The notes under the pieces are model-generated. The model saw nothing but the letters and a program-made list of their open reading frames with translations, was not told the origin of the DNA and made no database searches. From positions 14,357,142 to 14,421,141 of the forward strand of contig NC_057749.1 of NCBI RefSeq assembly GCF_004010195.1: a stretch of 64,000 bases of DNA, given 5' to 3'. Every line of letters starts with the position of its first letter. Position 1 is the first letter of the stretch. Below are positions 1-53,256 of this stretch, in pieces. The position numbers and the translations under genes are program-made. Origin of the DNA: Chiloscyllium plagiosum. Its lineage: Eukaryota.

Positions 1-1848
1 ATTCCTGCCTTTATTAAACAGGAAGATTATGATTATTTTCTTCACTCTGCCATAGGATGTGAACATCACGAGCAAAGCCAGCACCTGTTATCTGTCCATA
101 ATTTCTCTTAAAATGGCTGTCTCGGTCACTTCATAGAGCAGTTGCCAATCAACCATATTACTGTCCATCTGGAGTCACACGTAGGCCAGACTAGGTAAGA
201 ACATTGGACTTCACAGAATTAAACAGACTTTCACAAGAACTGATGAAAGCTTCACAGTCACCATGAACCTGGCTGTTGCAGGTTCCAGGATTTAGATGTT
301 TCAGTAAGAACAGAGAAGATGGCAAAAGAGAGGACGTGTGGCACTGTTAGTCAAGGACAATATTACTGTGGTAGAAAGGATGTTTGAGGACTCATTTACT
401 GAGGTAATATGGGTTCAGGTTAGAAACAGGAAAGGAGGTCAATCTGTTGGGAGTTTTCTATAGGTCTCCAAATTGTTCCAGAGATGTAGAGGAGAGGATA
501 ACAAACATAATTCTGGATAGGAGTGAGAGTAATAGGGTTGCTGTTATGGGGGACTTTAACTTCCCAAATATTCACTGGAAATACTATAGTTTGAGTACTT
601 TAGATGGGTCAGTTTTTGTCCAATGTGTGCAGGATGGTTTCCTGACAGTATGTAGACAAGCCAACAAGGGGCAAGGCCACCCTGGATTTGGAACTGGGTA
701 ATGAACCTGGTCAGGTGTTAGATTTGGAGGTAGGTGAGCGCTGTGGTGATAGTGACCACAATTCAGTTATGTTTACTTTAGCAATGGCAAGGGACAGGTA
801 TATAATGCTGAGCAAGAGTTATTGCTGGGGGAAAGGCAATTATGATTCGATTAGGCAAGATTTAGGATGCATACGATGGGGAAGGAAACTGCAGGGAATG
901 GGCACAATTGAAATATGGAGCTTATCCTTGACAAGTATGTACCTGACAGGCAGGGGGGAAGTGGTCGAGCGAGGGAGCAGTGGTTTACTCAAGAAGTTGA
1001 ATCTCTTGTCAAGATGAAGAAGAAGGCTTATGTGAGGATGAGATATGAAGAATCAGTTAGGGTGCTTGAGAGTTACAGGTTAGCCAGGAAAAGACCTAAA
1101 GAGAGAGCTAAGAAGAGCCACAAGGGGACATGAGAAGTCATTGGCAGATAGGATCAAGGAAAATCCTAAAGCTTTCTCGAGGAATATCAGGAATAAAAGA
1201 ATGAATAGAGAAAGATTAGGGCCAATCAAGGATAGTAGTGAGAAGGTGTTTGGAGTCAGAGGAGATAGGGGAAGCACTAAATGAATATTTTCCATCGTAT
1301 TCGCACTAGAAAACAACAATATTGTTGAGGAGAATACGGAGATACAGGCTACTAGACTAGATGGGATTGAGGAGGTGGTGTTAGCAATTCTGGAACGTGT
1401 GAAAATAGTTAAGTCCCTGGGATGGATGGGATTTATCCTAGGATTCTCTGGGAAGCCAGGGAGGAGATTGCAGAGCCTTTGGCTTTGATCTTTATGTCAT
1501 CATTGTCTACAGGAATAGTGCCAGAAGACTGGAGGATAGCAAATGCTGTCCCCTTGTTCAAGAAGGGGAGTAAGGACAACCCGAGTAATTCTAGACCAGT
1601 GAGCCTTACTTGGGTTGTGGGTAAAGTGTTGGAAAGGTTAAGAGATAGGATTTATAATCATCTAGAGAGGAATAAGTTGATTAGGGATAGTCAAGTTTTG
1701 TGAAGGGTAGGTCATGTCTCACAAACCTTGAGTTCTTTGAGATAGTGACCAAACAGGTGGATGAGGGTAAAGCGGTTGATATGGTGTATATGGACTTCAG
1801 TAAGCTGTTTCATAAGGTTCCCCACGGTAGGCTATTGCTCATACAGAG

Positions 1849-2037
1849 CAGCAGGTCAGGCAGCATCCAAGGAACAGGAGAATCGACGTTTCGGGCATAA
1901 GCCCTTCCTGAAGAAGGGCTTATGCCCAAAATGTCGATTCTCCTGTTCCTTGGATGCTGCCTGACCTGTTGTGCTTTTCCAGCAACACATTTTCAGCTCT
2001 GATCTCCAGCATCTGCAGACCTCACTTTCTCCTCAAA
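1849..2037. mobile_element. Palindromic hammerhead mini-element (family A) inserted in CR1
   Basis: Inverted arms meet at ~1905-1912. Core ctgaaga-agggc-ttat-gccc-aaaatgtc at 1908 has GAAAC decayed. atacagag is repeated at 1841-1848 and 2038-2045. Confidence 0.8.
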
Positions 2038-3001
2038 ATACAGAGGCATGGGATTGAGAGTGATTTAGTGGTTTGGATCAGAAGTTGATTAGCTGAAAAA
2101 AGACAGAGGGTGGTGGTTGGTTGGAAATGTTCATCCTGGAGTTCAGTTACCAGTGGTGTACTGCAAGGATCTGTTTTGGGGCCACTGCTGTTTGTCATTT
2201 TTATAAATGACCTGGATGAGGGCATAGAAGGATGGGTTAGTAAATTTGCAGATGAGACTAAGGTCGGTGGAGTTGTGGATAGTGTTAAAGGATGTTGCAG
2301 GTTACAGAGGGACATAGATAAGTTGCAGAGCTGGGCTGAGAGGTGGCAAATGGAGTTTAATGTGGAAAAGTGCAAGGTGATTCACTTTGGAGGGAGCAAC
2401 AGGAATAGAGAGTACTGGGCTAATGGTAAGATTCTTGGTAGTGGAGATGAGCAGAGAGATCTCGGTGTCCAGGTACATAGATCCCTGAAAGCTGCCACGC
2501 AGGTTAATAGGGTTGTTAAGAAGGCATATGGTGTGTTAGCTTTTATTGGTAGAGGGAATGAGTTTCAGAGCCAAAAGGTCATACTCCATCTGTACAAAAC
2601 TCTGGTGCAGCTATACTTGGAGTATTGCGTACAGTTCTGGTCACTGCATTATAGGAAGGATGTGGAAACTTTGCAAAGGGTTCAGAGGAGATTTACTAGG
2701 ATGTTGACTGGTATGGTGGGAAGGTCTTATGAGGAAAGGCTGAGGGAATTGAGGCTGTTTTCGTTAGAGAAAGGAAGGTTGAGAGGTGACTTAATTGAGA
2801 CATAAGATAAACAGAGGGTTAGATAGGGTGGACAGTAAGAGCCTTTTTCCCTCGGATAATGATGGCTAGCATGAGGAGACATAGCTTTAAATTGAGGAGT
2901 GATAGATATAGGACAGATGTCAGAGGTACTTTCTTTATTCAGAGAGTAGTAGGAGCGTGGAACGCACTGCCTGCAATAGTAGTAGACTCACCAACGTTAA
3001 G

Positions 3002-3137
3002 ATCAACTAGGAGAAAGTGAGGACTGCAGATGCAAGGAGGAGAGCTTCCTGAAGAAGGGCTTATGCCCGAAACATCGATTCTCCTACTCCTCGGATGCTG
3101 CCTGGCCTGCTGCGCTTTTCCAGCACCACACTTTTCA
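3002..3137 (+). mobile_element. Hammerhead mini-element (family A) with short inverted 5' piece, inserted in CR1 3' region
   Basis: 16-bp TSD actcaccaacgttaag at 2986-3001 and 3138-3153. ctgaaga-agggcttatgccc-gaaacatc-gattc starts at 3049. Confidence 0.85.
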
Positions 3138-4939
3138 ACTCACCAACGTTAAGGGCATTTAATTGGTCTTGGATAAACATATGGATGAAAATGGAATAGT
3201 GTACGATAGATGGGCTTCAGATTGGTTCCACAGGTCAGCGCAACATCAAAGACTGAAGGGCCTGTATTGTGCTGTCATCTTCTATGTTCTATGATGGAGG
3301 CTGGCTTTGAATTTCAGTTCCCACCCCTCCCACAAAAAAGCTAACCGAATTCAAATTCCATAGCTGCTGTGATGTGCCCTCTGGACTACTGAACTGATGA
3401 CATCAACACAATATTCCCCAAATATCCCAAGGCCTAACAATTTGCTTAGCCAGTTATCAATCTGTATAATCACAACATTTGTACTGTTCAGGAATTCAGT
3501 TACTCAGAATGCAAAATGCAGCTCAAAATGGTAGCATTCAATGGACAGAGAAATGAAGTATGAAATGAGTACAGTTGTTACAAAACAATTCACCATGGCA
3601 ACAATATCCTTTCAGAGAACATTAGATTGGTTTTTCAATGATTTCACAAAATTCTGTCTGTTTTCTTGCATTTATAAACTCATCCATGGTTACTAAATCC
3701 AAATGCACAATTTCCAAGCACTATAGAATATCTTAACTTACAGCTAAATAGATATGTTTGTATAATTTGTTTTGCAGACAGCATAATGAAAATGTGTTTT
3801 ATATCAAGTGCAGCAAGCATACTGCAATGTCAATAGCTCAACAGAAAACAAAGATATTTTGTAACGTATTAAAGCCAACAATTTTTACACAATGAAAAAG
3901 CTCATCATGTTCAACAATCATTGAAATTACCTACCACTAAAATCCCTCCAAGATGTGTAAGCAGAAATTGTTATCCAGATTGTTTACCCTTAGAAGCCTT
4001 TAATAAAAAGGGACTTATCCTTACAATAAATCCTGAATTAAATTTGGGTTTTTGAATAGACTCTGATAATAAGTCACATTGATCACTTCTGTTATTCCAC
4101 AGAATATGTATTAAAGGAAGAATGGTGAACTTTCAATTTGGTGTAACTGCTAGATTTTTACATCATTTTCAGCTATTTCAACAGCCTTCACATCATAGGC
4201 TGGTCACTTTCTATATAGCCAGTCATTTTAACGACACATATGAAATTTTTGAAAAACTGGCTCTCAATTTATTATAATCTGCAAATTCGATCGACTTGCA
4301 TTGAATCTCTTCCTTCAAATCACTGCTTAACATATTACAAAGGACTCAATTCTGCTCCTTTCGACATTACAAACAACTTCTCTCCAGGTACCAAGATCCA
4401 CTGGGAATCCAATCCAGTTAAGAGTTCCAGATAGAAGTCTAATTGCTGAGCTTGGTGAAAGGTTTCTTTAAAATCTAGGCACACTGTCATCAGGCTTTCT
4501 AAGCTTCACCCAGGTTAAAAACAAAGGAGACTGTTCATGCAGGATCCTTCCTTTTTCAGTCCATGTTAGCTACTATTTGCAAGGTACCAGATTATCAACT
4601 GCATTTACATGCTAATCTATTAGTAGTTTCTTAGTATTCTATTCTTAATCACTGGCAGTGCCCCACATTTATCCACTTCTCTCTTTATATTTCATGATAT
4701 TGTTATGAAGGTGTAGGTGTGTACTGTACCTTTAAGAGATAGTGAAAGCTGGGAAGGACTGACTGAAAGCACAGAGTGAGCTGAACAATTTAAAAATGGT
4801 TGTGAAACAAATAGCTGGAGATGAGTTGCCATGGTACACAACAAAATCGAATCCAGCCAATCAATTTAAATTATGCCTCAAGATAGCAAAATCCAATCGA
4901 ATTTGAATTTTAATGTTTTGAATGACATCAAACCAATGA

Positions 4940-5144
4940 TTTGGAGATGCCGGTGTTGGACTGGGGTGTACAAAGTTAAAAATCACATAACACCAGGTTA
5001 TAGTCCAACAGGTTTAATTGGAAGCACACTAGCTTTCGGAGCATCGCTCCTTCATTACCAACTGATGAAGGACCGCGCTCTGAAAGCTAGTGTGCTTCCA
5101 ATTAAACCTATTGGACTATAACCTGGTGTTGTGTGATTTTTAAT
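4940..5144. mobile_element. Palindromic hammerhead mini-element (family B, GAAAGCUA type) inserted in the solo LTR
   Basis: 14-bp TSD catcaaaccaatga at 4926-4939 and 5145-5158. Inverted arms ~4977-5055 and ~5064-5143. ctgatga-aggac..ctct-gaaagcta-gtg at 5062. Confidence 0.85.
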
Positions 5145-5350
5145 CATCAAACCAATGAGACAGTCTGACGTTTTGGGGTATATAAAATCAGATATTTTGA
5201 GCAGCAAAGAGCACCAAAAAAATACCAATTAAACCTATTGGACTATAACCTGGTGTTGTGTGATTTTTAACATCAAACCAATGAGACAGTCTGACGTTTT
5301 GGGGTATATAAAATCAGATATTTTGAGCAGCAAAGAGCACCAAAAAAATA
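5098..5350 (+). repeat. Near-perfect tandem duplication, ~127 bp x2
   Basis: 5098-5224 is repeated at 5225-5350 with about one indel, spanning the mini-element/LTR junction. Confidence 0.9.
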
Positions 5351-5849
5351 CGGCCTGCATAGCCTCTCTCTGAAAGGTACCTTTTCATATGAAAGTTATG
5401 AAGCTGAAGACCGGAAAAGAGACCCAGGAAAGTACAAACGAAGATACCTGGGAAAAGCGACAACTGGCTGGTTTTGAAATCTGAACTTTTTTGTTAAACG
5501 TAACCGAGGGTTTTATTGGATCAGTATGTTGTTGTACAGTGGAAGGTATATAAATTAATCAGACAAAGGAGGATTACGATGTGGATAGTTGTTGATTAAT
5601 GTTTTTGTGTTTCTTGGAGTTAAAGAATAAATTGTTAATTTCTTTTTCTTTAAATAGTGGGAATTTGGTAGTTCTTTGTCATTCATACTTAAACAGATTA
5701 TGAGACGACGTGAGCTTTTCTGTGGCTCTGGTTCAAATTAGCATAAGGGTTTACCCTGTCTCGTAACAGTATGTATCATGTAGCATCGGGAATTTGAGGC
5801 TGAGCCACAGTCTTCTGTTCCTGCTGTGCACTCCAAATCCGTCAACGCT

Positions 5850-10312: not shown

Positions 10313-11636
10313 CATAACATTGATGTGAATTTGTTCACTGGGGTGGCAATTTCAAATTTTGATTAGCAAGTTCCATTGATGCAGGAAAAAGTATATGTAT
10401 TGTATATGTTCTGATTAGCCAGTTTCAAATATCTTCACTTTGTTCCTTATCATACAAAAATGGTTTCAGTAATGTATTTACCACCACTATGGCACAACAG
10501 AAAAACAAAAAAAAGGCATTGTATGTTTGACACTCGTGATAACATAGGTATTGCTACACAATGTCACCCACGTTCCACTGGGAAGAGTGATCATCTACCA
10601 AGCATTCGGTTACTTTTTCCTGACAAGAAACCACTATATTAATCCAGTGAAAAACCTATGAAAACTAGCTAACGTAACATTACACAATGAAAGAAGTCGA
10701 CTCACAGATGTTGGTGTTCTGGTACGCAAATGCAAGATGTCTACTTGGGTCAACTACTGAAGTATACTACCAGATCAGGCACAAGAAATAGTGAGTGCTG
10801 CAGAGCATTCAACACCAGTCTCTGTGGCAAATGTATAATAATTGATTATAAAGGTAGTCACTCAGTTTATCTTAATTTTCATAGATTCTCTATCCAAATG
10901 GTTTCCATGAGTAAAAGTCCAGAATTAGGACATTCCATAAATTGACTCATGCCAAGTAACTTTGCGCCTGATGGTGAACCAAGGAAAAAGTCTTTTGTCT
11001 TTTGATTTCCCCTCCTCTAGGTGGGAAGATTCCTGGTTTCCATCCAGTGGCCTAGCTGAGAACAGGAACCCAATGTCGGGAAATCATAGAAATGAGTCTA
11101 CTTCCTACCACTCCAGTTTTAGCTACTGAAACTAGACTAATTCAAATGGCAGCTGTACAGCAAAAGATAGAATTGGCCCATAAACATTTCAAGAATAAAA
11201 ATTCGATCTCCAACTTGCACTGAACTAATTAATCCCAGCAGGGCAATGGTAGGAACGTCCAAATGAGCCTCAGCACTCCTGGACAGAGAGGGGTGATGTT
11301 TGTTTTCAAACACTGCACTTCTAAAAGGCAACCCTTATATGTACGTATATACACACACACACTATGATAAAGATGTAGATATCAATTTTCACATTATTTG
11401 CAACTAATGTTCTCAAATAAATAACACTCAAGTGATAAGAAAAAAAAATCAGGCGTGCCTTAAGGGACCAACCAGAACGATGATAATATTAAATATTAAT
11501 GAAGCTTCAAGCCAGAGTGCTTTAAAGCCGACCTGTCTGTATGATAAATCTTCTAATATTAAGCGGGTGAGAAGATTCCCTTCTTTCAAAATGATTCCGT
11601 TGGAATTTTAAAACTAAAATGTCGCAAATATAGTAG

Positions 11637-11674
11637 GATTCCTGATGAAGGGCTTTTGCCCGAAACGTCGAATC
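11637..11674 (+). ncRNA. Minimal type I hammerhead ribozyme motif, best-preserved copy
   Basis: GAUUC-CUGAUGA-A-GGGC-UUUU-GCCC-GAAA-CG-UC-GAAUC. Stem I gattc/gaatc, intact core, 4-bp stem II, loopless palindromic stem III (ACGU). Predicted cleavage after C11669. Confidence 0.8.
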
Positions 11675-11767
11675 TCCTGCTCCTCAGATGCTGCCTGACC
11701 CCGCTGTGCTTTTCCAGCACCACACTCTCAACTCTGATCTCCAGCAATTGCAGTCCTCACTTTCGTC
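11637..11767 (+). mobile_element. Single-arm hammerhead mini-element (family A)
   Basis: Hammerhead followed by the ~95-nt tail (gatgctgcctgacc..gcttttccagcaccacac..ctctgatctccagc..tgcagtcctcactttc) shared with the copies at 1849, 3002, 28157, 36224 and 51213. Confidence 0.85.
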
Positions 11768-14273
11768 TTGTATTGTCATCTGATGTTGGACTTTTGTTTA
11801 AAAACCATACTCACGTTTCTGATACTGATACTCATCGATTTGTATTTACATGTTAAATTCTATGAATAATTAAACATAACAATTCCAGATCTAAAAATAA
11901 ACTTGTATGAAAAGTTACTTTTAAACGCTAATTACAAGTACTAAAAGTCTGGATAAATTACCATATGATCAGAATCGGTGTCACAATTCACAGCTTTATG
12001 GCATTGAAAGTGACTGATTTAAAATACCAATTATAATCAGATGACTGAATCAACAATGATAGGCTAATCCGCTGGATTTCCTGAGCAAAAGGGACTGTAA
12101 CACACAGAAAAAGGAAATGTAAAGCAGCTGGTGCCAGGCAGCCTTATGTTCATGAATCATGACTCTGTTGTTTAAAAAGTTCAATCCATGATGTTACATG
12201 CTTTTGTACGTAAATCCAACTATATCAATCAATGCTGTGAACTTAAGGTTACAGGAAACAAATTTATTTCTCAGAACAATAGATGCAATAGAGGCTTGAC
12301 TGTACATTTAACTACAACGCCTACAGAAACTAGGAATCATCAAGAATCATCAGTTTATCAGCAAAATGGAGCACATTCATAGAAACTACAAGTAAATTAG
12401 ATGGACACATTTTGTAATGAATGAGAAGCAATATAAACAAAATGGCATAATATTAAAAGAAATACAGGAACAGAGACTTGGACTCACATACAAAGTCACT
12501 TAAAGTGCAGAACTTGGATATTGCTGAAAAAGAAAGGCATGCCATTGTTTCCACCTAGCACTCATCATGACAAACAAGAAAGCCAAATTTTAAAGGGAGC
12601 AACAATTTATACTACATGAGAAAAGGGCACTAATTGGTTGACAAGTCAACTCTGATTCATTGAAGTGCTGCAACTAACAACTATTTTCCCTCTTGTTCTT
12701 GCTCAAAATCTTTCAAAGTGGGAAGTTGTTAAAAAGAAGAGATGGAATCCTAACCCTTCCGTTCTACAGAGATCGGAGCACAAAAGGAAGAAACCAATAT
12801 TAAACATTTAGAAATCACTGGTTAGGCTTCAGGCATAGTGTGTCCAATTCAAGGCATCACATTTTAGGAAGGATATGGGTGCAAACTTTTATGCAGTTGA
12901 TAATCAAGCTCACTCATCCCTAATGTGTTTAAAGATAAGTAGACAAGCAAGAGGATGGAAGAACACAACAAGCCAGGCAACATCAGGAATCAACATTTCA
13001 GGTGTAACCCTTCTTCCGGTGGATGTAAGGGGAGCTGCAGATAAAGGGTGTGGTGGGGGCAGGGTGGGAAGGTGGGGATAAGTGAACACAGGTAGAAGGT
13101 ACGACCTGCTCAGTGGATGGGAGGAATGAATCCAGTTGGTGGCTAGAAGGAAGGGCCGAAGAGAAGAATGGAAGGGAAGGAGGAGGAGCTGAAGAGGGGC
13201 TGTTCTACATAGCTAACAAAGAGGCAGATGTAACTGGGGCCCATCGAAGTGCCCATGGCCACTCTCTGGATTTGGAGGAAATGGGAGGAGTTAAAGGAAA
13301 AGTTATTAAGGGTGAGGACTACGGGATGGCCATGGATGGGGCCCAGCTACACCTGTCTCTTTGTCGGCTACTTTGAACAGTCCCTCTTTAGTACCTACAC
13401 AGACACTGTGCCCCAGCTCTTTTGCCGTTACGTCAATGACTGCATCTATGCAGCATCCTGCACCCAGGCTGAACTGGAGCAGTTCATCAACTTTGCCCAC
13501 AACTTCCACCCTGCCCTCAAATTCACTTGGTCCATCTTGTACACCTCCCTCCCCTTTCTCAACCTCTCCATTTCCATCTCCGGTGACTGTCTCCAGATGG
13601 ACATTTATCATAAACCCACAGACTCTCTCAACTATCTGGACTACACCTCCTCGCACCCAGGATCATGCAAGAAATCCATTCCATTCTCCCAATTCCTTTG
13701 CCTCCCCCACATCTGCTCAGACAAGGGGATATTCCACTTCCAAGCATCCCAGTTGTCCACCTATTTTGAACAACATGCTTTCTCCCTTCTCATCTAGACA
13801 ACCCATCACCGCACTGCCTCCATTCCACATTCCATTGCTCTAACTCCCCTTCCCCAAATGCGATAAAGACGGGGTTGCCCTTGTCTTCACCTACCACCCC
13901 ACCAACACATCCAACACATCATCCTTAAACACTTTCTCCAACTAGACCTCACCACCAAGAACATTTTCCCATTCGCACCCCTCTCCACCTTCCGCAAGGA
14001 CTGTTCCCTTTGCCAATCCTTGGTTTGCCAACTCTCCCCACCAACCCTCTCCCCTACCCGAAAACTCCCAGGTATTTTTCCCTGAACAGGAAAGATGAAA
14101 AACCTGCCTCTCCTCCAACCTAATGTACTGCATCAGGTGCTCCCACTGTGGTCTTCTCTACATCAAGGATTCCAAACGTAAACGAGGGAATGTTTTGCTC
14201 AGCATCTCAGCCAGGCCCGCAGGGGCCGACCTGACCTCCCAGTTACCCCCAATTTTAATCCCCTTCCCACTCC

Positions 14274-14634
14274 CTTTCTGACATCATCATCCTTGGCCTC
14301 CTCCTTTGCGACAACAAATCAAACCGCACATTTAAGGAACAACACCTCATCTTCTGCCTGAGCAGACTCTAACTGCCCAAAGGACTCCATTTTGGGAAAG
14401 CAAATCTTAACAGGACTTTATAACTTGATAGTAAGGTCCTGGGAGTATTACTTTTAGTAATACTCCCAGGACCTTACTATCAAGTTATAAAGTCCTGTTA
14501 AGATTTGCTTTCCCAAAATGGAGTCCTTTGGGCAGTTAGAGTCTGCTCAGGCAGAAGATGAGGTGTTGTTCCTTAAATGTGCGGTTTGATTTGTTGTCGC
14601 AAAGGAGAAGGCCAAGGATGATGATGTCAGAAAG
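14274..14634. repeat. Near-perfect inverted duplication (179-bp arms, 3-nt spacer)
   Basis: 14274-14452 is the reverse complement of 14456-14634; one mismatch noticed by eye. Confidence 0.95.
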
Positions 14635-20739: not shown

Positions 20740-21052
20740 TCAAAGTTTGGGAGAAGATTTGTCGCTCGGGTGCTCGTTGTTGTGGTTCTGTTCACCGAGC
20801 TGGAAGTTTTTGTTGCAAACGTTTCGTCCCCTGTCTAGGTGCTTGGGAGCCTCCTGTGAAGCGCTTCTGTAGTGTTTCCTCCGGCATTTATGTTTATGCT
20901 GCTGTGAAGCGGCAGGGACAGGCCACTATAAATGCCGGAGGAAACACCACCGAAGCGCTTCACAGGAGGCTCCCAAGGACTGAGGATGTCACCTAGACAG
21001 GGGACGAAACGTTTGCAACAAAAATTTCCAGCTCGGCGAACAGAACCACAAC
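20740..21052. mobile_element. Palindromic hammerhead mini-element (family C)
   Basis: 11-bp TSD atagatgatat at 20729-20739 and 21053-21063. Inverted arms ~20778-20891 and ~20928-21053. Confidence 0.9.
20977..21016 (+). ncRNA. Minimal type I hammerhead motif
   Basis: gga-CUGAGGA-U-GUCACC-uagaca-GGGGAC-GAAA-CG-UU-ugc. Core is present with a palindromic ACGU stem III; stem I has one mismatch and GUU is a non-optimal cleavage triplet. Confidence 0.6.
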
Positions 21053-26709: not shown

Positions 26710-29700
26710 GTATCTCTAGACGGAGGGCGTCTAGGAAAACAAACAGCGAAACTCACAACTGATCTTGGAGGAACCTGTCTGAGAGAGCTCACTGCATAGG
26801 AACAGATAAGTGCTTCGTTTTTAACGTGTAACCTTGCTGTAAGACTACAGTAGTGAGTACACTGGGGTCTTTCTTGATTATATACTTTAGTGAAATCTGA
26901 CTCTTGATTAAATTTTAAAAATATAAACCATAAGTATGAAGTTAGCTTGAAGCACAGCTGCTCATAGAGCAAAATTACGGTGCTGTTTTCTGCGTCTGTA
27001 GATTGTGAAGGAACAAAGATGGCCTTCAGTAGAGCAATATACTCTTCTGGTCGATGTGGGAGTTCAGGGAGAGCTTATGTGTTGCTGAGGATTATATTTG
27101 CAGCTGGTGTGTATGGTTGCAAATCCTATCAGACCGAATGGATCAGTTAGAGCGACTATTAGAGGCAATGAGGAATTTACAAGAGCCTGGCTGTGATGGA
27201 TGGCAGTTATAGGAAGGGAGATAAGTCACAGATACAGGAAAGGAAGGAGAAGTGGGCAGGTAGCGCAGGGGTCTTCTGTGGCTATCCCCATTGAAACAAG
27301 TATGCTGTTTTGGAAAATGGAGGGGGTGATGGACTCTCAGGAGAATGTAGCACGAGCAGCCATGTTTCTGCTACCGAGAATGGCTCTAATGTAATGAGGG
27401 GTATGTCCGGTTCCGAGCAATCGATTGTGATAGAGGGCTCTACTCAGATGCACAAACAGACGTTTCTGCGGCCAGCAGGGAAATATCAGAATGGTGTGTT
27501 GTTTCCCTGGTGCCAGGATCAAGGATGTCTCAGAGAGGGTACAGAAGGTTCTCAAAGGGGAGAGCAACCAGCAGGAGGTAATTATATGCATTGGAACCAA
27601 TGATATTCGAAGGGAAAAGGATGAGATTCTGAAGGGAGAATATAGAGAGTTAGGCAGGAATTTAAAAAGGAGTTCCTCGAGGGTAGTAATATCTGGATTA
27701 CTCCCGGTGCTACAAGCTACTGAGGATAGGAACTGGAAGATAGAGCAGATGAATGCATGGCTTAGGAGCTGGTGCATGGGAGAAGGGTTCACATATTTGG
27801 ATCATTGGAATCTCCATTGGGGTGGAAGTGACCTGTACAAGAAGGATGGATTGCACCTGAATTGGAACGGGACTAATATACTGATTGGGAGATTTGCTAG
27901 AGTGGCTCGGGAGGATTTAAACTAATAAGGTTTTGGGGTGGGGATGGCACCCAGGCGATAGTGAGGAAAGAGATCAATCTGAGATTGGTACAGTTGGGAA
28001 AGGGTATGAGCCAAACAGTCAGGGCAGGCAGGGACAAAGCAGAGAACAAGGTAGGACCGATAAATTAAACTGCATTGACTTCAATGCAAGAGGCCTAACA
28101 GGGAAGGTAGATGAACTCAGGGCATGGTTAGGAACATGAGACTGGGATATCATAGCGTCGAGTGTGTGGTGCTGGAAAAGCACAGTAGGTCAGGCAGCAT
28201 CCGAGAAGCAGGACAGTCAACATTTCGGGCAAAAGCCCTTCATCAGGAATGCAGGATATCATAGCAATTACAGAAATGTGGCTCAGGGATGGACAGAACT
28301 GGCAGCTTAATGTTCCTGGATACAAATGCTTCAGGAAGGTAAGAAAGGGGGTCAAGAGAGGGGGTAGGAAATGGAATTTTTGATAAGGGATAGCATTACT
28401 GCTGTACTTAGAGAGGATATTCCTGGGAATACATGCAGAGAAGTTATTTGGGTGGAACTGAGAAATAAGAAAGGATGATCACCTTATTGGGATTGTATTA
28501 TAGACCTCCAAATAGTCAGCAGGAAATTGAGAAACAAATTTGTAAGGAGATTTCAGTTATCTGTAAGAATAATAGTGTGGTTACCTTTCTATACAAAGAC
28601 TGGGACTGCCGTAGTGTTAAGGGTTTAGATGGAGAAGAATTTGTTAAGTGTGTACAAGACAAATTTTCTGATTCAGTATGTGGACGTACCTACTAGAGAA
28701 GGTGCAAAACATGACCTATTCTTCGGAAATAAGACAGCGCAGGTGACTGAGGTGTCAGTGGGGGAGCACTTTGGGGCCAGTGGCCATAATTCTATTAGTT
28801 TTAAAATAGTGATGGAAAAAGATAGACTGGATCTAACAGTTCAAGTTCTAAATTCGAGGAAGGCTATTTTGACAATATTAGGCAATAACTTTCAAAAGCT
28901 GACTGGGGCAGATGTTCACAGGTAAAGGGATGGCTGGAAAATGGGAAGTCTCCAGAAATGAGATAATGAGAATCCAGAGAAAGTATATTCCTGTTAGGGT
29001 GAAAGGAAAGGCTGGTAGGTATAGGGAATGCTGGATGACTAAAGAAATTGAGGGTTTGGTTAAGAAAAAGAAGGAAGCATATGTCAAGTATAGACAGGAT
29101 AGATCAAGTGAATCCTTAGAAGAGTATAAATGCAGTAGGAGTGTACTTAAGAGGGAACTCAAGAGGGCAAAAAGGGGACATGAGGTAGATTTGGCAAATA
29201 AGGTTAAGGAGAATCCAAAGAGTTTTTATAAATATATTAAGGACAAAAGGGTAACTACGGAGAGAATAGGGCCCCCCAAAAGATCAGCAAGGCAGCCTAA
29301 TGTGTGGAGCTGTGTGAGATGAGGGAGATACTAATAGAGTATTTTGCATCAGTGTTTACTGTGGAGAAGGACATGGAAGATATAGAATGTGGGGAAATAG
29401 ATAGTGACACCTTGAAAAATGTCCATATTACAGAGGAGGAAGTGCTGGATGTCTTGAAACGCATAAAGGTGGATAAATCCCCAGGACCTCATCAGGTGTA
29501 CCCTAGAAATCTGTAGGAAGCTAGAGAAGTGATTGCTGGATCCCATGCTCAGATATTTGTATCATCGATAGTCACAGGTGAGGTGCCGGAAGACTGGAGG
29601 TTGGCTAACATGATGCCACTATTTACGAAAGGTGGTAAGGAAAACCAGGGAACTATAGATCGGTAAGCCTGACATCAGTGGTGGACAAGTTGTTGAAGGA

Positions 29701-35130: not shown

Positions 35131-36223
35131 AAGAGCAGGCAAAGGATCATCCTTATTCTTCACGATGTACTCAGAAGGGAGTGATTTTAGCAGAGGACAG
35201 GGAGGCCTGATGGTATAGACCAGAAAAAATATCTACATAGTTAAATCAGTCACCAGAAATGCGCATGGATCTATGTAAACACACTTGCACATATTTTAGG
35301 CGTTTCAATTTTGAGTAGCAAATTAAGGTTTGCTTCATACACAAAAATGAAATTTTTCTGATTGCTCAAAGATCATGAAATTATTACCCCATATCATTTG
35401 TTAATTTAGTCATGGTAACATGCAAACCAAGGATACTTTTTTTGGAATCAAGATTCGTGAGATATCTCTCGAACCCTGGGAATCAAATTAAAATTCTGCA
35501 TTACTAGTTTCTAGTCACTAGAGGGAACTCAATAATTGAGAACTTTGAACTGTATATTCAGGCGTATAGGAAATGTGATTAGTCTAATTATCTATCTCCA
35601 GGACTCAGTAAATTAGTTTAAATATACATGATCTAGTTATGTTTGAAGGCCCAATAAACCAGCTGAAAGATTACTTTCTATTAGGTTCCAGTTATGACTG
35701 CAGCTGAAGGTGCTAAAAATTTTGAAACGCAAATTTTTACTGAATCTAAAGTTTACCTCATAAACTAGCCATTTGGAAAGTCAGTATGGGTGACTATATA
35801 TCTGGCTGTGCAGCTGCATCAAAATGTTCTGTTCCCATAGGAACTATTGTCTGGCTACCTTTACTCACACTGAACAATATCTTAGAAAAATGGAAAGTGT
35901 GTTACTGATAAGCAAACCTTAAGGGTTAAGTTGTGTACTCCAAGTATCTTAACAACCTTGGGATTTGCATATAACATTAAGGCAAGTATCTCCAAGTGGG
36001 GGCATTCAGGTTTAACAACGTGAAAAATTTAAGTTTCCAAGTTCAACAATATCCAAACTCACTTCAAATCACAATGGTCCCAAACTAAAATACTGCGAAA
36101 ACCAGCAAATGTAGTTACACACAAACTGCCTTTCCATATTTATTATGGATTTCTTAAAGGCTTGGTACCTAATAAATAACAAAACTGTAGATCTTAAACC
36201 AGTGGAGGGCTTCTTCTGATCAA

Positions 36224-36543
36224 AAAATGTGCTGCTGGAGAAGCGCAGCAGGTAAAAACAATGACTGCAGATGCTGAAAACCAGATTCTAGATTAGAGTG
36301 GTGCTGGAGAAGCACAGCAGGTCAGGCAGCATCCGAGGAACAGGAGAGTCAACCTGAATGCCCCCCACTCGAAGGTACGAGCCTTATTGTTATATGCAAA
36401 TGCCAAGGCTGTCAAGATATTTGAAGTACACAACTTAACCTTCTTAAGATTTGCTCCTCGGATGCTGCCTGACCTGCTGTGCTTTTCCAGCACCACACTT
36501 TTTGACTCTGATCTCCAGTACCTGCAGTCCTCACTTTCTTCCA
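36224..36543. mobile_element. Family A mini-element with inverted arms enclosing captured local DNA
   Basis: 15-bp TSD gcttcttctgatcaa at 36209-36223 and 36544-36558. The central 36351-36455 is an inverted, diverged copy of 35911-36012. Confidence 0.85.
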
Positions 36544-38340
36544 GCTTCTTCTGATCAATCTACAAGTATGGATAGAGATTAAGCCATGCAGCAGTATCTC
36601 TTGTTATCCAGTAAAGTCAGATTCCTAATCTAGGTTACCTTGCGATGGGTTAATGTTGAAGAATGGCCTTTCATTTCCTACAGTTCGGAGCAAATATTAA
36701 AGGAAGCATTAATTCAACTGACCAGAAATGTAGAGGGAGGAGAAATATTGGCTTTGTGGTGCTACTGTACATTTATCAAATTGGTATTGAATAAACTTGA
36801 GATTTTCACTTATTATGTGATTAAACATTCCAAAGACTTCTCAGAAATCTTAATTTTTGACAGAAGAGCCATTTATGTAAGCATGCCAGTCATTATTCTG
36901 AATGTTTTATGTTCCCTTATAAACAATGGGGCCTAGTGACGCAATAAACTTACTCTTCCGATTAACAGTTTCAGAATGATTTGAAAGGGGTGGGGGAGCA
37001 GAGTGAAGAAAATGTGGTGTGCAGAATAACTTACAATTTTTTTACCCTTGCAACAAAACACAAATGTTTATACTAACCTGACTGCAATGTCACAAATCCA
37101 ATGACACCTTCAAAATTCTGGCAGAGGCTTGTATGGAGCATAAACACTGTCACAGACCTGTACGACCAAATGGCCTACTTCCATGCTAGGTACTATGTAA
37201 TTCAAAGAAAGCGATATGGAAAAATTCAACTGTCAAAATTGATCAAATTTAAAATATAGCTAAAAATCACTATTATTGCTTTAATTTCCACACAGTTGTT
37301 AACAGATCTGAATTAAGCAACACTACGGGCATACGTAACTGACTGCCTCCAAGAGCATTTAGAAAAAGCAAGCCCAGTGCAGAAACGTATGTATGCGAGC
37401 ACAAGTGTGTGTGAGCAAGCGAGCAGGAAAGAGAGAGACAGGCACACTGTGTGTTTGGCAGGTTGTGGGGGGGGGGGGGGGGGCGGGTGGAAGAGATGTA
37501 TAAGAGCTCATCCCTCCTGAACAGTAGATCAAACTTCTCAACACTGACATTTTTGTTGCCACCAGAACTATGGAATCCACCTAAAATGAGGAATTCCACA
37601 GCACTAAAAATCCCAGCTTACATCTGACAAAAGATGCGCACACAAGTCTCTGCCTTTACTGCATTCAAGATTAGAAAACTATTTGGTCAAAATGCATTTT
37701 CATTGGTAACAGCCTTGAACGAAAGCTGTTGTTCTCCAGTCAGAATGTTGTTCTTTTACTATCATGGCTGTCCCTTCATTTGCAACAAAACTAGAACAGC
37801 AATTTTACAAACCATCCCATTGCACAACATTAAGTTTCAATAGCCAAAAGACTGCCATTATTTTGAAGTGGAAGTCATTACTTTTACAGGTTTATGCAGG
37901 TTGCAACTTTGCTCCGCAGGTCATAAATACCTAACATACTTTTGAAGGCCTCAGGAGATAAGAAAACTATTACACCATGCAAGCTGTCAAACTAATTTAC
38001 ATTTTACAAAATGACATATGCATAAAACTGAAGTAATACACTTCCTGCTAACTCTTCATACCTCCTTGTGTATGATACTTTTCAAGTCCACTTTTAACTG
38101 TAGAGCCTCTGTAATGCCAATTGCAGAAAAATGTGCATTAGATCCCACATTTATAGCTGAAATTTGCTTCCTTATCCCTTTAGTAGTGTCCTAGACCCAG
38201 ACTTCTGTCATTGCTTCCATCAATTACATGGTTTAGATTAGGAATTAAGATTGTCCTTAATTTTATTTTCTGGCATCAAACACTATCCAACCAACGTTCA
38301 CAGGCCCTTTGGGACTGATACATAAAACTTACCCAGCACT

Positions 38341-41140: not shown

Positions 41141-41402
41141 CAGGTTTGTTACAATTTTCTCTCAAAATGTTTATGCTGGCTCCTCCCAACTAACCCACAT
41201 TTTTTCATGTGATTATTAATTCTATCCCAAATGTTGACTTCACCAATTTCCTTATCCCATCGCCTCTTCCCCCCAACCTTATCCTGGATCCAACCGTCCA
41301 ATTCAGCACTGCCCTTTCTGTCCATCTTGCTTTCCATCTATCCACTCCATCCTACCGTCTGACCTATCACCATCAGCCCCCACCTGCATCCACCTATCAC
41401 CT

Positions 41403-41502
41403 ACGGCTTCACTTGGAGGTCGCCACTGATGATGTTACCTAGCCAGGTAATGAAATGTCTGGATATCAAACCTACAGCTCAGCGAGCAAACCCACACCCT
41501 AT
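41403..41502 (+). mobile_element. Single-arm hammerhead mini-element (family C) nested in the PLE remnant
   Basis: 11-bp TSD acctatcacct at 41392-41402 and 41503-41513. Homologous to the PLE end at 56215-56310. Confidence 0.8.
41423..41462 (+). ncRNA. Minimal type I hammerhead motif
   Basis: CCA-CUGAUGA-U-GUUACC-uagcca-GGUAAU-GAAA-UG-UC-UGG. Stem I cca/tgg, 6-bp stem II, GUC triplet. Confidence 0.7.
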
Positions 41503-43471
41503 ACCTATCACCTTTCCAGCTACCTCACCCCCTACCTCCAGCCTCCTATTTATCTCTCAGCCCACTTCCCCCCCTCGCCCCCAAACATTCCTGATGAAGG
41601 GCTCATACCCGAAACAAAGATACTTCTCCATCATTGATTGTTGTAATTGCATAAATTGATTGTTGTAATTGCATTTTATTCAACCGCAATATTTCACATT
41701 TGATAACACAGCTAACATACTTGACTTCAGGTTGTAAACTGCAATGAAGTTTAGAAATATTACTGGTACTTATCATTGACATGGAAAGTTTATCTAATGA
41801 GCAGCTGACCCATTTCTATCCAGTGAAGTCCCAATATTCTATCTAAAGCAAGCATTATCAAGAAATGCTGTAATTGACATCAATTTCCTTTCATTAGAGA
41901 AGGAAAAGAAGCAACAGTATGCTGATACTTGGTTGAAAATTTTGCAAGTGCATAAATATAAACATTGAGTATGATCAGATTAACTTAGCAATCTGACAAT
42001 CAAATAATTTTTAAAAAAAAGGTTAGAGCCTTTACTGATTTTTCACTACTTCTAGATTTTATTCTTTCATCAATTTTGGTTTGGAGCAGTGAACTGGGAA
42101 CTGTGAGCTAAATATGACTTTTGAACTGTGGCTAATAGCTTGTGTTAAAAGGGGGAAAAAAAACAAACAAGGTTTTGCTTATTTGACAGACTAAGTCTGG
42201 AAGTTAATTGCAGGTTGGTTTGTGAATCAAAATGCTCTGTAGATGCTTCATCTCCAGGGAACAGCATTATGCTTGAACAGAGAACAGCGGATGGCTATTA
42301 ACAGAACTGATTCCAGTAAGTCTAAAAAAGACGGTTTTCTCAAGAAGGCAGCAGATTTTGAATAGTAAGTGAGAGCTCATGGAAGAGACAGTTAGCCTGT
42401 CAGAGAGGAGCCAGAGTTGGAACTGGTTTTGAAAACGTTTTTTTGTGAAAAAAATACATCTGGCTGTTGGTGCATGAAGATTAGAAAGCTTCTGCCTAAC
42501 CTCCCTTGAGCAATTCTTAGTATTCTATTCTCTAAACTTCCAAGTTTAAGTATTACTATGCTTCTCGGAGTAAATTAAAAAGGTGAGCCAGATCAACATC
42601 TTCAGAAAATCAACCAAAAAACCCCATCGGTGTCTGTGGAACACACATCATGGCAACTACTTAAGTAGTCTGGCCAGTTTTGTTGGTTTTTGTTTTATCC
42701 CTTAACTGTGATTACTTGTCTGTCTGTCCATTCTGTGACCAGAGCGGAAAGATTTTGGGTTTATAGCATAGATCAATTAGGTTGCTTTGTTGTTTCATTT
42801 TTGCTCTGCTAAAGATACTATATCATTAATAAATTGCAAAGTGCTTTGTTTAAGGTACAAGCCAATGTACGGTATTGATTATTCAAAGAGTCTAGATTCG
42901 GCTATTGCAAAGTTTTGTTAGGAACCACTGGGGTCAGTTTTGAGGGCCTTTGAAAGTTTAGTTTTAGCATTTTGTGAATACATAGGTTGAAAGGCTGATT
43001 TGGTTCAGCTGTCTATCTCTATGTCATAACTGACTCATTTCGGTTAAGTACAAGAGAGCACCCAGATTCACAACAAACAAAAAGTCACAGGGAGAGAACA
43101 TTTATTTTAGAAGGGAAGTAATAAAGTCAAATATTTATTGATTTAAATTTTACATGTTCGAAGTCCAAAACTCACTCTCAAAAAAAAATCAGATATTTTG
43201 TGCAACAATTCAAATTGATCTCCAGTTAAATAAAATTCAGATTTGCCCAAATTTCAATACAATTCAGTTAGTCACTAGTTCTTCATGTTCATCGAGCTGA
43301 GTTACTGCCCTCAGTCAATCTGAATGATGCATGGCCCACCCAATCTGTCAAGCAACTTAGTGCTTTTAGTGCATCTGTATTATTTCCATGTCTTATGTCA
43401 TTACAATCATGTCAGGAAGGCCAACTGACAACTTCATGGGCAACAGTGTGAAAAGGATGCATATGATGTTG

Positions 43472-50779: not shown

Positions 50780-51212
50780 TTCTAGGTTTCATGGGAGTTA
50801 AATTTGCAGATAAATATTGGGAGCACCAAAAAAAAAGTTCCAAGAAAAAAAAATTACTTCCAAGCAGTATTCATAGCATATGGGATAATTGACATACCAG
50901 AAAATGAAGAACTTAATGTTAACAAATTGATGGGATTGTTTAAATACAGGTCATGAACAACAGGTACTAAAAGAGAACTGTAACAAATAGAAATAAGGGC
51001 CAAAATGCTGTTGGAAATTGTGAACAAAGAAAATGTGGGATTTGGAATAAGCAAATAAACCACAGAAAATGCTCCAGGTGTAATCATTGATGTTTCAGGT
51101 GTGATTCAAAATATCACTACACCATGAATTCTCTCAAACACTATAATAAGGCATTTGAAATCAAACATGAAAGAAGATTCAGAGCAAGATAGCAATACAG
51201 ATTAAAGAGAGT

Positions 51213-51416
51213 TGAAAATGTGTTGCTGGAAAAGCGCAGCAGGTCAGGCAGCATCCAAGGAGCAGGAGAATCGACGTTTCGGGCATGAGCCCTTCTTCAG
51301 GCTCATGCCCGAAACGTTGATTCTTCTGCTCCTTGGATGCTGCCTGACCTGCTGTGCTTTTCCAGCAACACATTTTCAGCTCTGATCTCCAACATCTGCA
51401 GTCCTCACTTTCTCCT
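51213..51416. mobile_element. Palindromic hammerhead mini-element (family A)
   Basis: 14-bp TSD agattaaagagagt at 51199-51212 and 51417-51430. Arms meet at ~51300. Minus strand has an intact CTGAAGA-AGGGC-TCAT-GCCC-GAAACGTC (51300-51273). Confidence 0.9.
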
Positions 51417-53256
51417 AGATTAAAGAGAGTGCATTGTAATGATCACAAGAAATTTCAGCCCAGTGATGAAAGTATTGATGGGCAGAGTCTTTCAGTTCTG
51501 CAGTATTACACATTAGACACATGTCTATTATGTATAGAAAAGGCCAATTAAAATGCTACCGAGACTAAGTAAAAAGGATCAAGATATAGTTAGGAAATCG
51601 ATATTCTACCAGCTTCAGATTTAGAGTTGATAAAATACTAAAATATTTGAAAAATAGTATTGTAAATTAACTGGATTTAATCATTTTATTAGCATGAATG
51701 TGGTGTCTCATGAATATCTCTGTTATTAAGTAGAAAGCAGTAATCAAACTCTTTATGGAAAATGGCAATGCTATTGTAGTTGAAAGATCAGTGAATGTGC
51801 AAATTAGAAAACTGGGATTCTATTCTTTTCCTTTAATGAAAAACAACCTCTCAATTAAAGCTATTGACATCAGTAGTAGAAATTTATTCGGTAAACCTCC
51901 ATTGTGTAAAAACTACAAAGGCAATTTGCTCATCTATCTTCTAAACATTTAAAATTTCAATAAAGAATGCACAAACAAGGGTTGAGGAGTACAATAAATC
52001 ACAGAAGTAACAGATGTTAGATCTGCAAGAAATACTGAAGGACACCACCAGTCGATAATAAATCTACACTTATCAAGAGATTTCAATGAGGTAGTGGCCT
52101 TAAAGGGGATTTAGAGTTTTAGGATAATCTAAGTATTCTAATTTTGCATTTTGTAGATTGACAAAATCTGGTTGTCAAATCAAGAAAATTGGGGATAAGG
52201 CAATAATAGAAGTGGAAAGGGTTTGGACTTGGATCACTGGCAAATTTTTCATCAATAATTTGAGGGGAGTTTGTTAGTAAGAATACGAACACAACAGTTA
52301 TAAATACAGAGGCAGAAAGCCCTTTTCAGCAATAGGGTACGTGAAAGCAACCAGGCCATAGTAGATGAAATTATTGACAACATTTTGGTACATCAGCCAA
52401 ACTGTAAGTTATCATCTGCATTAGTGTGAGCTGTACATGCTAAGAATTTGTTGAGGAAGATGGGATGACGCCCATATCAGTCATAAGTGACAGCCCCTAC
52501 TTCAGGAAGGGATAACAATTAGTTTTGCTTTTTTTTTTGGAGCATTTGAATGCATTGCATCCTGGCGGAACTTTCATTAAAGTTGAAATCTCAGGATTCA
52601 GTGAATCTAAGCTTTAAGATAAAACCATTGGAAACAGTTTCAATCTGGTTTATCATAGGAGAGAGAGGCTTAAAGAATACAATGTCCCAAGGAAGGTTAT
52701 GAGTAAAGATGAAAACAAATAATAGTCACAGCATTAGAATTACCCTATTCTGGTACACTCTTCCTTAATGCATATGGGTTACAAATTTGCAGATTCTGAA
52801 GAATTTGTTATTGAAAATAGTTGAGGAGCCAGATATTTCTCATAACCACATATTGGATAGCTACAAGGATTAAACTGTCACAATTGACAGCTTGTCTGAT
52901 GATGGACAACAGCGTTCTGATGGTCAATAGGAAGTTATTAGTGCCAAAGGATAACTGCCAAAAGTGTGTGAGAAGACGGAGTAGCTCAATTCTGGCACTC
53001 TCTGCAAGCTGCACTAAGTTGGCTGCCTTCATACTCCCATATGGTCTCAGTCACTTTAATAAGGATCCAGATTCTGCTAATTCTTCAATAAGCTGCTCAA
53101 ACACTAACTGTTGGAAAAACCCTTGCTTAAGGCTAACATTATAGAAATTAAAGTGTAGGCTTCAGTTGTGTGCAAAGTACAATCTCAATTAGGTTTGTAA
53201 AAATAAAAATTTCATCGTTCTTCACCAATGAATGTATGTACTCAGTCCTAAGTAAA

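Follow-up and report, generated by a model that had tools for sequence, protein, structure and literature searches.

A minimal hammerhead motif without loop III in a short, likely inert Penelope-like fragment of the Chiloscyllium plagiosum genome

Minimal hammerhead ribozymes (min-HHRs) were defined by Cervera & de la Pena 2014 as type I hammerheads that have no helix III or loop 3 and that reside in the pseudo-LTRs (pLTRs) of Penelope-like elements (PLEs) (PMC4209133). According to the available text of that study, their traits are a G10.1-C11.1 pair, an unpaired nucleotide between A9 and G10.1, a palindromic 15.2-16.2 and a short helix I. Per genome they number in the thousands; the copies are heterogeneous, and most stand singly or in pairs on opposite strands, 100-700 bp apart. 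They are present in fishes, coelacanth, amphibians and reptiles (PMC4209133). The word "shark" has no occurrence in the available text, and the family and host lineage described below are unnamed in it. The host elements are defined by an ORF in which a reverse transcriptase (RT) is followed by a C-terminal GIY-YIG endonuclease (PMC4209133; PMC8557442; PMC11167929), and their insertions carry a tail of 30-40 bp at one end only (PMC8557442; PMC11167929). Frangieh et al. 2024 derived this tail from two adjacent internal reverse-transcription start sites beside an AC-rich stem-loop (PMC11167929).

We analysed a motif of this kind in a stretch of 64,000 nucleotides from Chiloscyllium plagiosum (the window). 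Our reading is that 11636-11675 is a loop-III-less type I min-HHR of a PLE, lying in a ~133-bp terminal fragment that was left by retrotransposition and is likely an inert relic; we put the probability of this reading at roughly 85%. The kind has already been described, and the motif is an ordinary min-HHR in a short dead PLE fragment. The original prediction, which presented the motif as an intact minimal hammerhead and the best candidate for an active ribozyme, missed that it belongs to a known, named class tied to Penelope-like elements.

Direct reading of the forward strand at 11636-11675 gives GGATTC CTGATGA A GGGC TTTT GCCC GAAA CGTC GAATCT. The core box CUGAUGA (C3-A9, 11642-11648; also recovered by pattern search) is followed by an unpaired A at 11649, between A9 and G10.1, that is invariant in 10 of 10 aligned copies. 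Helix II (11650-11661) has 4 bp, with the strands GGGC and GCCC (G11650-C11653 and G11658-C11661), a UUUU loop (11654-11657) and G10.1-C11.1 as its closing pair, and it is paired in every predicted fold. The stretch 11662-11669, found by sequence and pattern search, holds the GAAA box (11662-11665, with G12-A14 at 11662-11664), the loop-less half-site of helix III and, in GUC (11667-11669), the nucleotide C17 at 11669, which places the predicted scissile bond between 11669 and 11670. The CUGANGA box, the GAAA box and the NUH triplet are thus present in the right order, together with the G10.1-C11.1 closure and a flanking helix I. The latter is formed by GGAUUC (11636-11641) and GAAUCU (11670-11675) with five Watson-Crick pairs (C11641-G11670, U11640-A11671, U11639-A11672, A11638-U11673 and G11637-C11674) and one possible wobble, G11636.U11675. 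All three CpGs of the motif (11661, 11666 and 11669) are retained, and the core is intact because the copy escaped CpG decay.

A15.1, C15.2, G16.2 and U16.1 (11665-11668) make up the palindrome ACGU, in which A15.1 C15.2 are followed directly by G16.2 U16.1. Helix III is therefore impossible within a single molecule and can form solely between two copies. The original prediction had already proposed a two-copy helix III through ACGU, rightly and in line with the published model of the class (PMC4209133, in its available text). Its anatomy (CUGAUGA, GAAA, GUC, the extra A and the UUUU-capped stem II) is correct in every element, its stem I of 5-6 bp corresponds to the five Watson-Crick pairs plus the wobble, and its cut after C11669 agrees with the C17 numbering.

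Rfam is silent on the motif: a scan of the window at the gathering score gave no hammerhead match, and neither did a scan of 11400-11900 at E <= 10. The silence is explained by the lack of the helix III hairpin that the hammerhead models expect, and without an Rfam match the hammerhead call rests on motif anatomy and family context. Five weak Rfam matches (snoRNA, GadY, Ocean-VII) were also returned, at chance level. One could take the silence to mean that 11637-11674 is a chance look-alike unrelated to ribozymes, but the counts speak strongly against it. With up to 3 mismatches allowed, the window contains a single match to the exact 38-mer, where 100 shuffles predict 0.00, and CTGATGA-N6-30-GAAACGTC likewise occurs once against 0.00 in shuffles. 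Across the 3.56-Gb assembly, CTGATGAAGGGCTTNTGCCCGAAACGTCGANTC is found in at least 1,205 copies (614 + 591), as opposed to 0 for the reversed control, and GGATTC joined to the core occurs 834 times. Moreover, the window contains a second min-HHR family (20980, 41426 and 56237), which keeps the core and the unpaired base (U where 11649 is A) despite a different helix II of 6 bp, GUCACC/GGUGAC. The pair GGGC/GCCC and GUCACC/GGUGAC is the kind of between-family compensation described in PMC4209133. Given the shuffles, the genome counts and this second PLE family, we rejected a chance origin, whose likelihood is negligible.

The longer copies of the repeat link the motif to a PLE. A minority of copies, among them L016, L024, L009 and L017, extend 100-500 nt upstream (340+ nt in these four), and this upstream part is the end of an ORF. 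Database relatives of the ORF tail (P0001 and P0002; 58-69% identity, E about 1e-32) contain an RT fragment with a YIDD-type motif and a GIY-YIG motif. Under Pfam, GIY-YIG reaches 21.7 bits in these relatives (cut-off 22.6), and truncation of the protein keeps RVT_1 below threshold; the Atlas places both in clusters with RVT_1, HTH_animal and GIY-YIG. Pfam made no GIY-YIG call on the decayed ORF tails themselves. Since the RT part of L024 is masked (N), an ORF with RT and endonuclease joined to the hammerhead is not seen in one piece; by way of the longer copies and the two relatives, the motif occupies a pLTR/UTR position beside an RT + GIY-YIG ORF, with domain scores just under the Pfam cut-offs. 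Within the window, tblastn located PLE ORF remnants at 13200-14400 and, weakly, at 55837-56007, and the second-family unit at 56237 lies just 3' of a PLE-like ORF remnant.

The copy that carries the motif spans ~133 bp (11636-11768, forward strand), as delimited by blastn and alignment, and consists of the hammerhead, a stem-loop and the PLE "tail"; no ORF and no inverted arm were found in it. From query position 9-10 onward it shares 92-94% identity with genome copies, most of which align to it only from 11638-11639 onward, and its upstream flank is unrelated in alignment to that of the longer copies. Downstream of the hammerhead, on the same strand, the stem-loop GTGCT-TTTCC-AGCAC followed by CACAC (11706-11725) is paired in the MFE folds and is, by analogy with PAc, the Poseidon element studied by Frangieh et al. 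2024 (PMC11167929), a candidate for the AC-rich hairpin beside the first reverse-transcription start site. In other copies, the outer ends of inverted arms cluster just 3' of a stem-loop of this type. The tail (11731-11768, forward strand) is a ~35-nt extension that direct arms carry and inverted arms lack, and the window copy accordingly counts as a direct unit. A search for target site duplications (TSDs) at this copy found none adjoining its ends, the one match being 10/11 at ~27 and 17 nt outside them.

A search of the window by loose core pattern and blastn brought up the related copies, of which only one has escaped damage to its core; the copy at 11642 is the best preserved. One head-to-head palindromic pair of the same repeat (51212-51417; 51208-51412 by core pattern and blastn) is bounded by a 12-bp TSD, GATTAAAGAGAG (51200-51211 and 51418-51429), and its minus-strand arm at 51300 has an intact core without stem I. 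Another head-to-head pair (1845-2033) is inserted in a LINE reverse-transcriptase ORF (RVT_1 in 2089-2805); its plus-strand arm at 1905 has AAAAUGUC, a core decayed by the change of G12 to A. A rearranged inverted pair around an unrelated insert (36224-36544; 36224-36547 by core pattern and blastn) has a 14-bp TSD, CTTCTTCTGATCAA (36210-36223 and 36545-36558), and its hammerhead core is gone. Among the other copies, that at 3007-3141 (forward strand) reads CUGAAGA ... GAAACAUC at 3049 and has lost the palindrome, and that at 28154-28250 (reverse strand) ends its core in GAAAUGUU at 28246, with C15.2 and C17 changed. The copy at 41228-41625 (forward strand; 41587-41615 by core pattern and blastn) is longer: an ORF tail and 3'UTR precede its decayed hammerhead (GAAACAAAG at 41591), and a hammerhead unit of the second family interrupts the copy. 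Within the window, therefore, the ranking of 11637-11674 as the best candidate holds, as the other copies have a damaged core or lack stem I.

How such units are bounded was read from an unbiased sample of exact-core matches, the first by contig order (L031-L060; 29 distinct copies from one contig). Of the 29, 4 extend upstream within the element, 14 are immediately preceded by an inverted arm and 11 meet unrelated flank, i.e. are solo copies; together with the exact-core count given above, this describes a large and heterogeneous family. In 25 of the 29, the 5' end falls at the 5' edge of helix I, no more than a few nt from C3. TSDs flank the units in L031, L032, L038, L049, L057 and L022, as well as in two of the window pairs, and abut at -4..0 in the first five of these loci. 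Inverted arms have their outer ends at +86..+97 from C3 (~+90) and direct arms end at ~+124, which leaves the ~35-nt tail; L038 and L049 end at ~+88, beside their TSDs. In an unrestricted local sample, 23 of 37 inverted arms end at -6..+5 and 3 of 37 at the ribozyme cut site. The repeat thus bears the marks expected of PLE insertions: truncation at the 5' end, a neighbouring inverted copy that is itself 5'-truncated, and a tail of 30-40 bp confined to one end. The 5' ends of the copies are too sharp for simple random 5' truncation.

Two further readings of these boundaries were set aside. A retrozyme-like tandem organization was rejected, since TRF found no tandem array at or near the window copies and head-to-tail junctions of the short unit number just 6 in the 3.56-Gb assembly. 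Among 68 tails in the sampled loci, none continues into shared sequence or into a next unit, and no head-to-tail pLTR-ORF-pLTR copy was seen there. The other reading was that copies starting at G1.1 are genomic "fossils" of cleaved RNA. A pattern search for the inner ends of inverted arms, which could see solely ends between G1.1 and G12, placed by hand count ~40 of the 100 matches listed (out of 190) exactly 3' of the cleavage site. TC/TTC microhomology with the leader explains both peaks, and the fossil reading gains no support either way.

In the parent element, the hammerhead is placed shortly 3' of the RT + GIY-YIG ORF and ~125 nt ahead of the site at which insertions end. Published PLE biochemistry suggests the following course. 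The PLE enzyme would start reverse transcription inside its own RNA, at the tail, and the cDNA would be copied back through the hammerhead and stop at the 5' edge of helix I. The outcome would be either a short solo unit like 11636-11768 or a head-to-head inverted pair.

The same sharp ends admit another account, in which the ~130-nt unit would be a discrete cDNA of the 5' leader of a PLE transcript that starts at the helix I edge (the pseudo-LTR start), or equivalently a non-autonomous rider made of the recognition module, with the enzyme initiating at the first internal start site downstream. This account would accommodate the clustering of 25 of 29 ends near C3 with just four copies continuing upstream, the abutting TSDs and the inverted arms that end likewise near the same edge. 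The initiator consensus is YYANWYY; the A-type upstream sequence TCATTCC fits it, whereas the B-type upstream sequence CTGGATTC fits it poorly. Published work offers two parallels: Penelope of D. virilis has an internal TATA-less promoter whose transcription start falls within the pLTR, 46 nt (spliced) ahead of the hammerhead region (PMC2377424; PMC4209133), and the enzyme of PAc (Poseidon of Anolis carolinensis) needs only RNA from ~+20 to +172, around the hammerhead and ORF start, and initiates internally (PMC11167929). On the other hand, reads show no pile-up of ends, and RNA reads covering the motif extend beyond it, upstream, into the interior of the element. The same boundary would result from a strong reverse-transcriptase stop or from a snap-back of the cDNA at the hammerhead hairpin, and the sample comprises 29 copies from one contig. 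We therefore regard the leader-cDNA account as possible, though on balance doubtful.

A little more doubtful still is the specific proposal that the hammerhead marks the very 5' end of the template RNA of this PLE family, with transcripts starting at the initiator-like TCATTCC at the 5' edge of helix I. It builds on the finding that most insertions, be they solo units or either arm of a head-to-head pair, end no more than ~6 nt from C3. If this were true, a capped RNA would carry the ribozyme at nucleotides ~5-32 and would lose its capped leader on cleavage. Full-length cDNAs of this leader, made from the first internal reverse-transcription start site, would then be what the ~130-nt units are, and every such unit, including 11636-11768, might carry an internal promoter.

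In stem I, the family majority has GATTC, GACTC or GATTTT after GUC, which leaves a U.U mismatch at the third helix I pair; among the 100 core matches listed, nearly all have GATTC or GACTC. The A at 11672, in the 3' strand of helix I, is a minority state that closes this mismatch: ATTC-core-GTCGAA occurs in only 63 genome copies, and reads from other copies mostly have T at this position. On the 5' side, GGATTC is element-internal in some subfamilies (L073, L089) and lies partly inside the TSD in L083. Helix I is weaker family-wide than in the window copy, whose perfect stem I is owed by accident to a single minority base and is specific to this copy. The "complete stem I" of the original prediction is thus real here and is not a property of the family.

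Whether the motif can work as a ribozyme was approached through folding, with nearest-neighbour energies that ignore tertiary contacts. For the monomer, ViennaRNA favours an inactive GAUG/CGUC hairpin, in which G5-G8 pair with C15.2-C17, at -15.1 kcal/mol over the open hammerhead at -12.9 kcal/mol. For two copies, a nested, strand-swapped double hammerhead reaches -24.7 kcal/mol, as compared with -32.0 for an extended duplex and -30.2 for two monomers. A dimeric helix III as in PLE min-HHRs can thus be written for this sequence, though the double hammerhead is not the predicted optimum. These energies agree with the published min-HHR experiments, in which, according to the available text, a single min-HHR gave no detectable cleavage and dimers and trimers had low activity, mostly at non-physiological Mg2+ (PMC4209133). 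The hammerhead of PAc was cleaved only when the PLE protein was added and was dispensable for insertion in vitro; in vivo, the available text reports no read that terminates at the cut site (PMC11167929).

Four read runs were mapped to the region. Depth falls only on the repeat (11631-11777), and the unique flanks have zero depth in the RNA runs. All 129 reads of one run (X20) fit partly and therefore come from other copies; another run (X21) gave no aligned reads. Among the reads, which derive from other copies, there is no pile-up of ends at 11670. Family RNA is present on both strands in one RNA run, and for this reason a copy whose core is intact and whose stem I is perfect could in principle work in trans with the many transcripts of the family. 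By analogy with the class, a double hammerhead would arise when two copies join through ACGU and exchange helix I strands. Each core would then cut after C17 (here between 11669 and 11670), probably only if assisted by the element's protein.

It could accordingly be asked whether 11637-11674 is a working ribozyme at its locus, cut in trans by or with family RNAs and possibly serving the host. Its intact core with all CpGs kept, the best stem I of the family, the family RNA on both strands and the dimeric cleavage reported for the class (PMC4209133; Lunse et al. 2016 as cited in PMC6765202) would be in keeping with such a role. Against this stand an intermolecular helix III of only 4 bp, a double hammerhead (-24.7) that loses both to two monomers at -15.1 each and to the duplex, and the published record of min-HHRs inactive as monomers and weak as dimers and of a PAc hammerhead in need of protein. 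Besides, the copy belongs to a set of thousands of repeats in decay, and nothing around it is conserved. We consider a working ribozyme at this locus very improbable. The call of an active ribozyme in the original prediction is accordingly unsupported here: the copy is a ~133-bp dead terminal fragment, for which a core pattern search found no intact same-strand partner in the 64-kb window. That call is further disfavoured by the scarcity of head-to-tail junctions genome-wide, by folding energies that favour inactive forms and by the behaviour of the published relatives just described. Most likely, 11636-11768 is an inert relic without a partner in cis.

The main value of this result is correct annotation. 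Hammerhead-like matches of this shape in large vertebrate genomes are PLE debris and not host ribozyme genes, and Rfam will miss them. Beyond annotation, the abrupt 5' ends at the helix I edge, the two 3' ends ~35 nt apart and the head-to-head pairs joined at the hammerhead are a genomic record of where PLE reverse transcription starts and stops. With thousands of copies in one lineage, the family pattern could be used to test the in vitro model in which reverse transcription initiates internally (Frangieh et al. 2024, PMC11167929), and to probe what the hammerhead does.

Compared with known systems, the motif shares its catalytic core and its arrangement of helices I and II with Rfam Hammerhead_1 (type I), and differs in giving no match at E <= 10 to models that expect a helix III hairpin. 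The weak helix III in cis and the resulting double hammerhead recall newt satellite 2 and the avocado sunblotch viroid (Forster et al. 1988 as cited in PMC4209133 and PMC6765202). Those systems have a helix III of 1-3 bp closed by a small loop and are arranged in tandem arrays or as rolling-circle multimers (PMC4209133; PMC6765202), whereas the shark motif has no loop and almost no tandem units. Animal non-LTR retrozymes are similar in being short, non-coding hammerhead units related to PLE pLTRs, with solo copies common (PMC7229834; Li et al. 2026, 10.64898/2026.07.22.740005). They are, however, head-to-tail tandem repeats that yield circular RNAs (PMC7229834; 10.64898/2026.07.22.740005), in contrast to the six such junctions and the lack of an array here.

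The resemblance to PAc, in the available account of that element (PMC11167929), extends to the architecture of the insertion. There, too, the hammerhead lies ~90-120 nt upstream of the insertion end, and there are two alternative ends ~35 nt apart, the nearer one beside an AC-rich stem-loop; the ability of PAc to extend both DNA strands fits the inverted arms seen here. The systems differ in their reading frames, as the PAc ORF starts at stem II (PMC11167929), whereas in the window copy the frame from the AUG in CUGAUGA stops after 17 codons and the known ORF of the family lies upstream of the hammerhead. Protein-assisted cleavage, as in the PAc hammerhead (PMC11167929), would be a further point in common.

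Closest are the min-HHRs themselves. Helix II has 6-8 bp in many of their families (PMC4209133), as against 4 bp in the window motif and 6 bp in the window's second family, and the 5+1 bp helix I of the window copy is unusually complete. All of the listed sequence traits of min-HHRs are found in the window motif (PMC4209133; Lunse, Weinberg & Breaker 2016 as cited in PMC6765202), and, as in that class, the motif adjoins an RT + GIY-YIG ORF, and its copies are heterogeneous, run into the thousands and are for the most part solo or in opposite orientation (PMC4209133).

Copies of family 1, the Penelope-like element (PLE) repeat that carries the studied hammerhead, begin at the 5' edge of helix I, and these ends are far sharper than expected from random 5' truncation, both in the genome loci L031-L090 and in the two head-to-head pairs of the window (1845-2033 and 51212-51417). 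At the same loci, the 5' edge of helix I is also the join point of the head-to-head pairs. Microhomology of TC or TTC to the ATTC leader, part of the 5' strand of helix I just before the core box, is frequent at family-1 junctions. Around the terminal PLE fragment at 11636-11768, we detected a direct match of 10 out of 11 positions between GTTGGAATTTT (11599-11609) and GTTGGACTTTT (11785-11795), with one arm about 27 nt upstream of the fragment's 5' end and the other about 17 nt beyond its 3' end. This match could be a distant target-site duplication with additional junction sequence, or could have arisen by chance in AT-rich DNA.

A second family of minimal hammerheads is present on the forward strand (20980-21020, 41426-41465, and 56237-56275). 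The three copies share the layout CTGA(T/G)GA, an unpaired T, helix II (6 bp, GTCACC/GGTGAC, capped by a 6-nt loop) and then a GAAACGTC-like stretch. All three are decayed: the first to GUU, the second to AUGU, and the third by a G12 to A change plus ACAU. Just upstream of the third lies the remnant of a PLE-like ORF, which spans 55837-56007 and continues beyond. The second belongs to a family-2 unit of about 105 nt (41395-41505, forward strand), flanked on both sides by the 10-bp direct repeat ACCTATCACC. Its host is a longer family-1 PLE fragment (41228-41625, forward strand), whose 3'UTR the unit interrupts, so that two decayed minimal hammerheads lie 165 nt apart on the same strand.

The palindromic insertion of PLE tails at 1845-2033 interrupts a LINE-type reverse-transcriptase ORF (1780-2805, forward strand; RVT_1 in 2089-2805, E 7e-11). 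A 163-aa open frame (27434-27925, forward strand) encodes a domain resembling GDSL lipases/esterases (Lipase_GDSL_2, E 4e-13; OSK, 1e-6), a type found in some LINE ORF1 proteins. Close to this frame is a decayed PLE tail (28154-28250). The window also contains a tandem duplication of a 126-bp unit (5098-5351; two units, 99% identity, TRF score 501). A PLE ORF remnant at 13200-14400 (forward strand) covers the C-terminal part of the reverse transcriptase and the GIY-YIG region, with a short inverted piece (13322-13200) at its 5' end. On its 3' side is a near-perfect palindrome of about 240 bp (14340-14580, centred near 14455), in which the last 100 nt or so of the ORF recur in reverse. The remnant shares about 48% identity with P0001, a database relative of the family-1 ORF tail.
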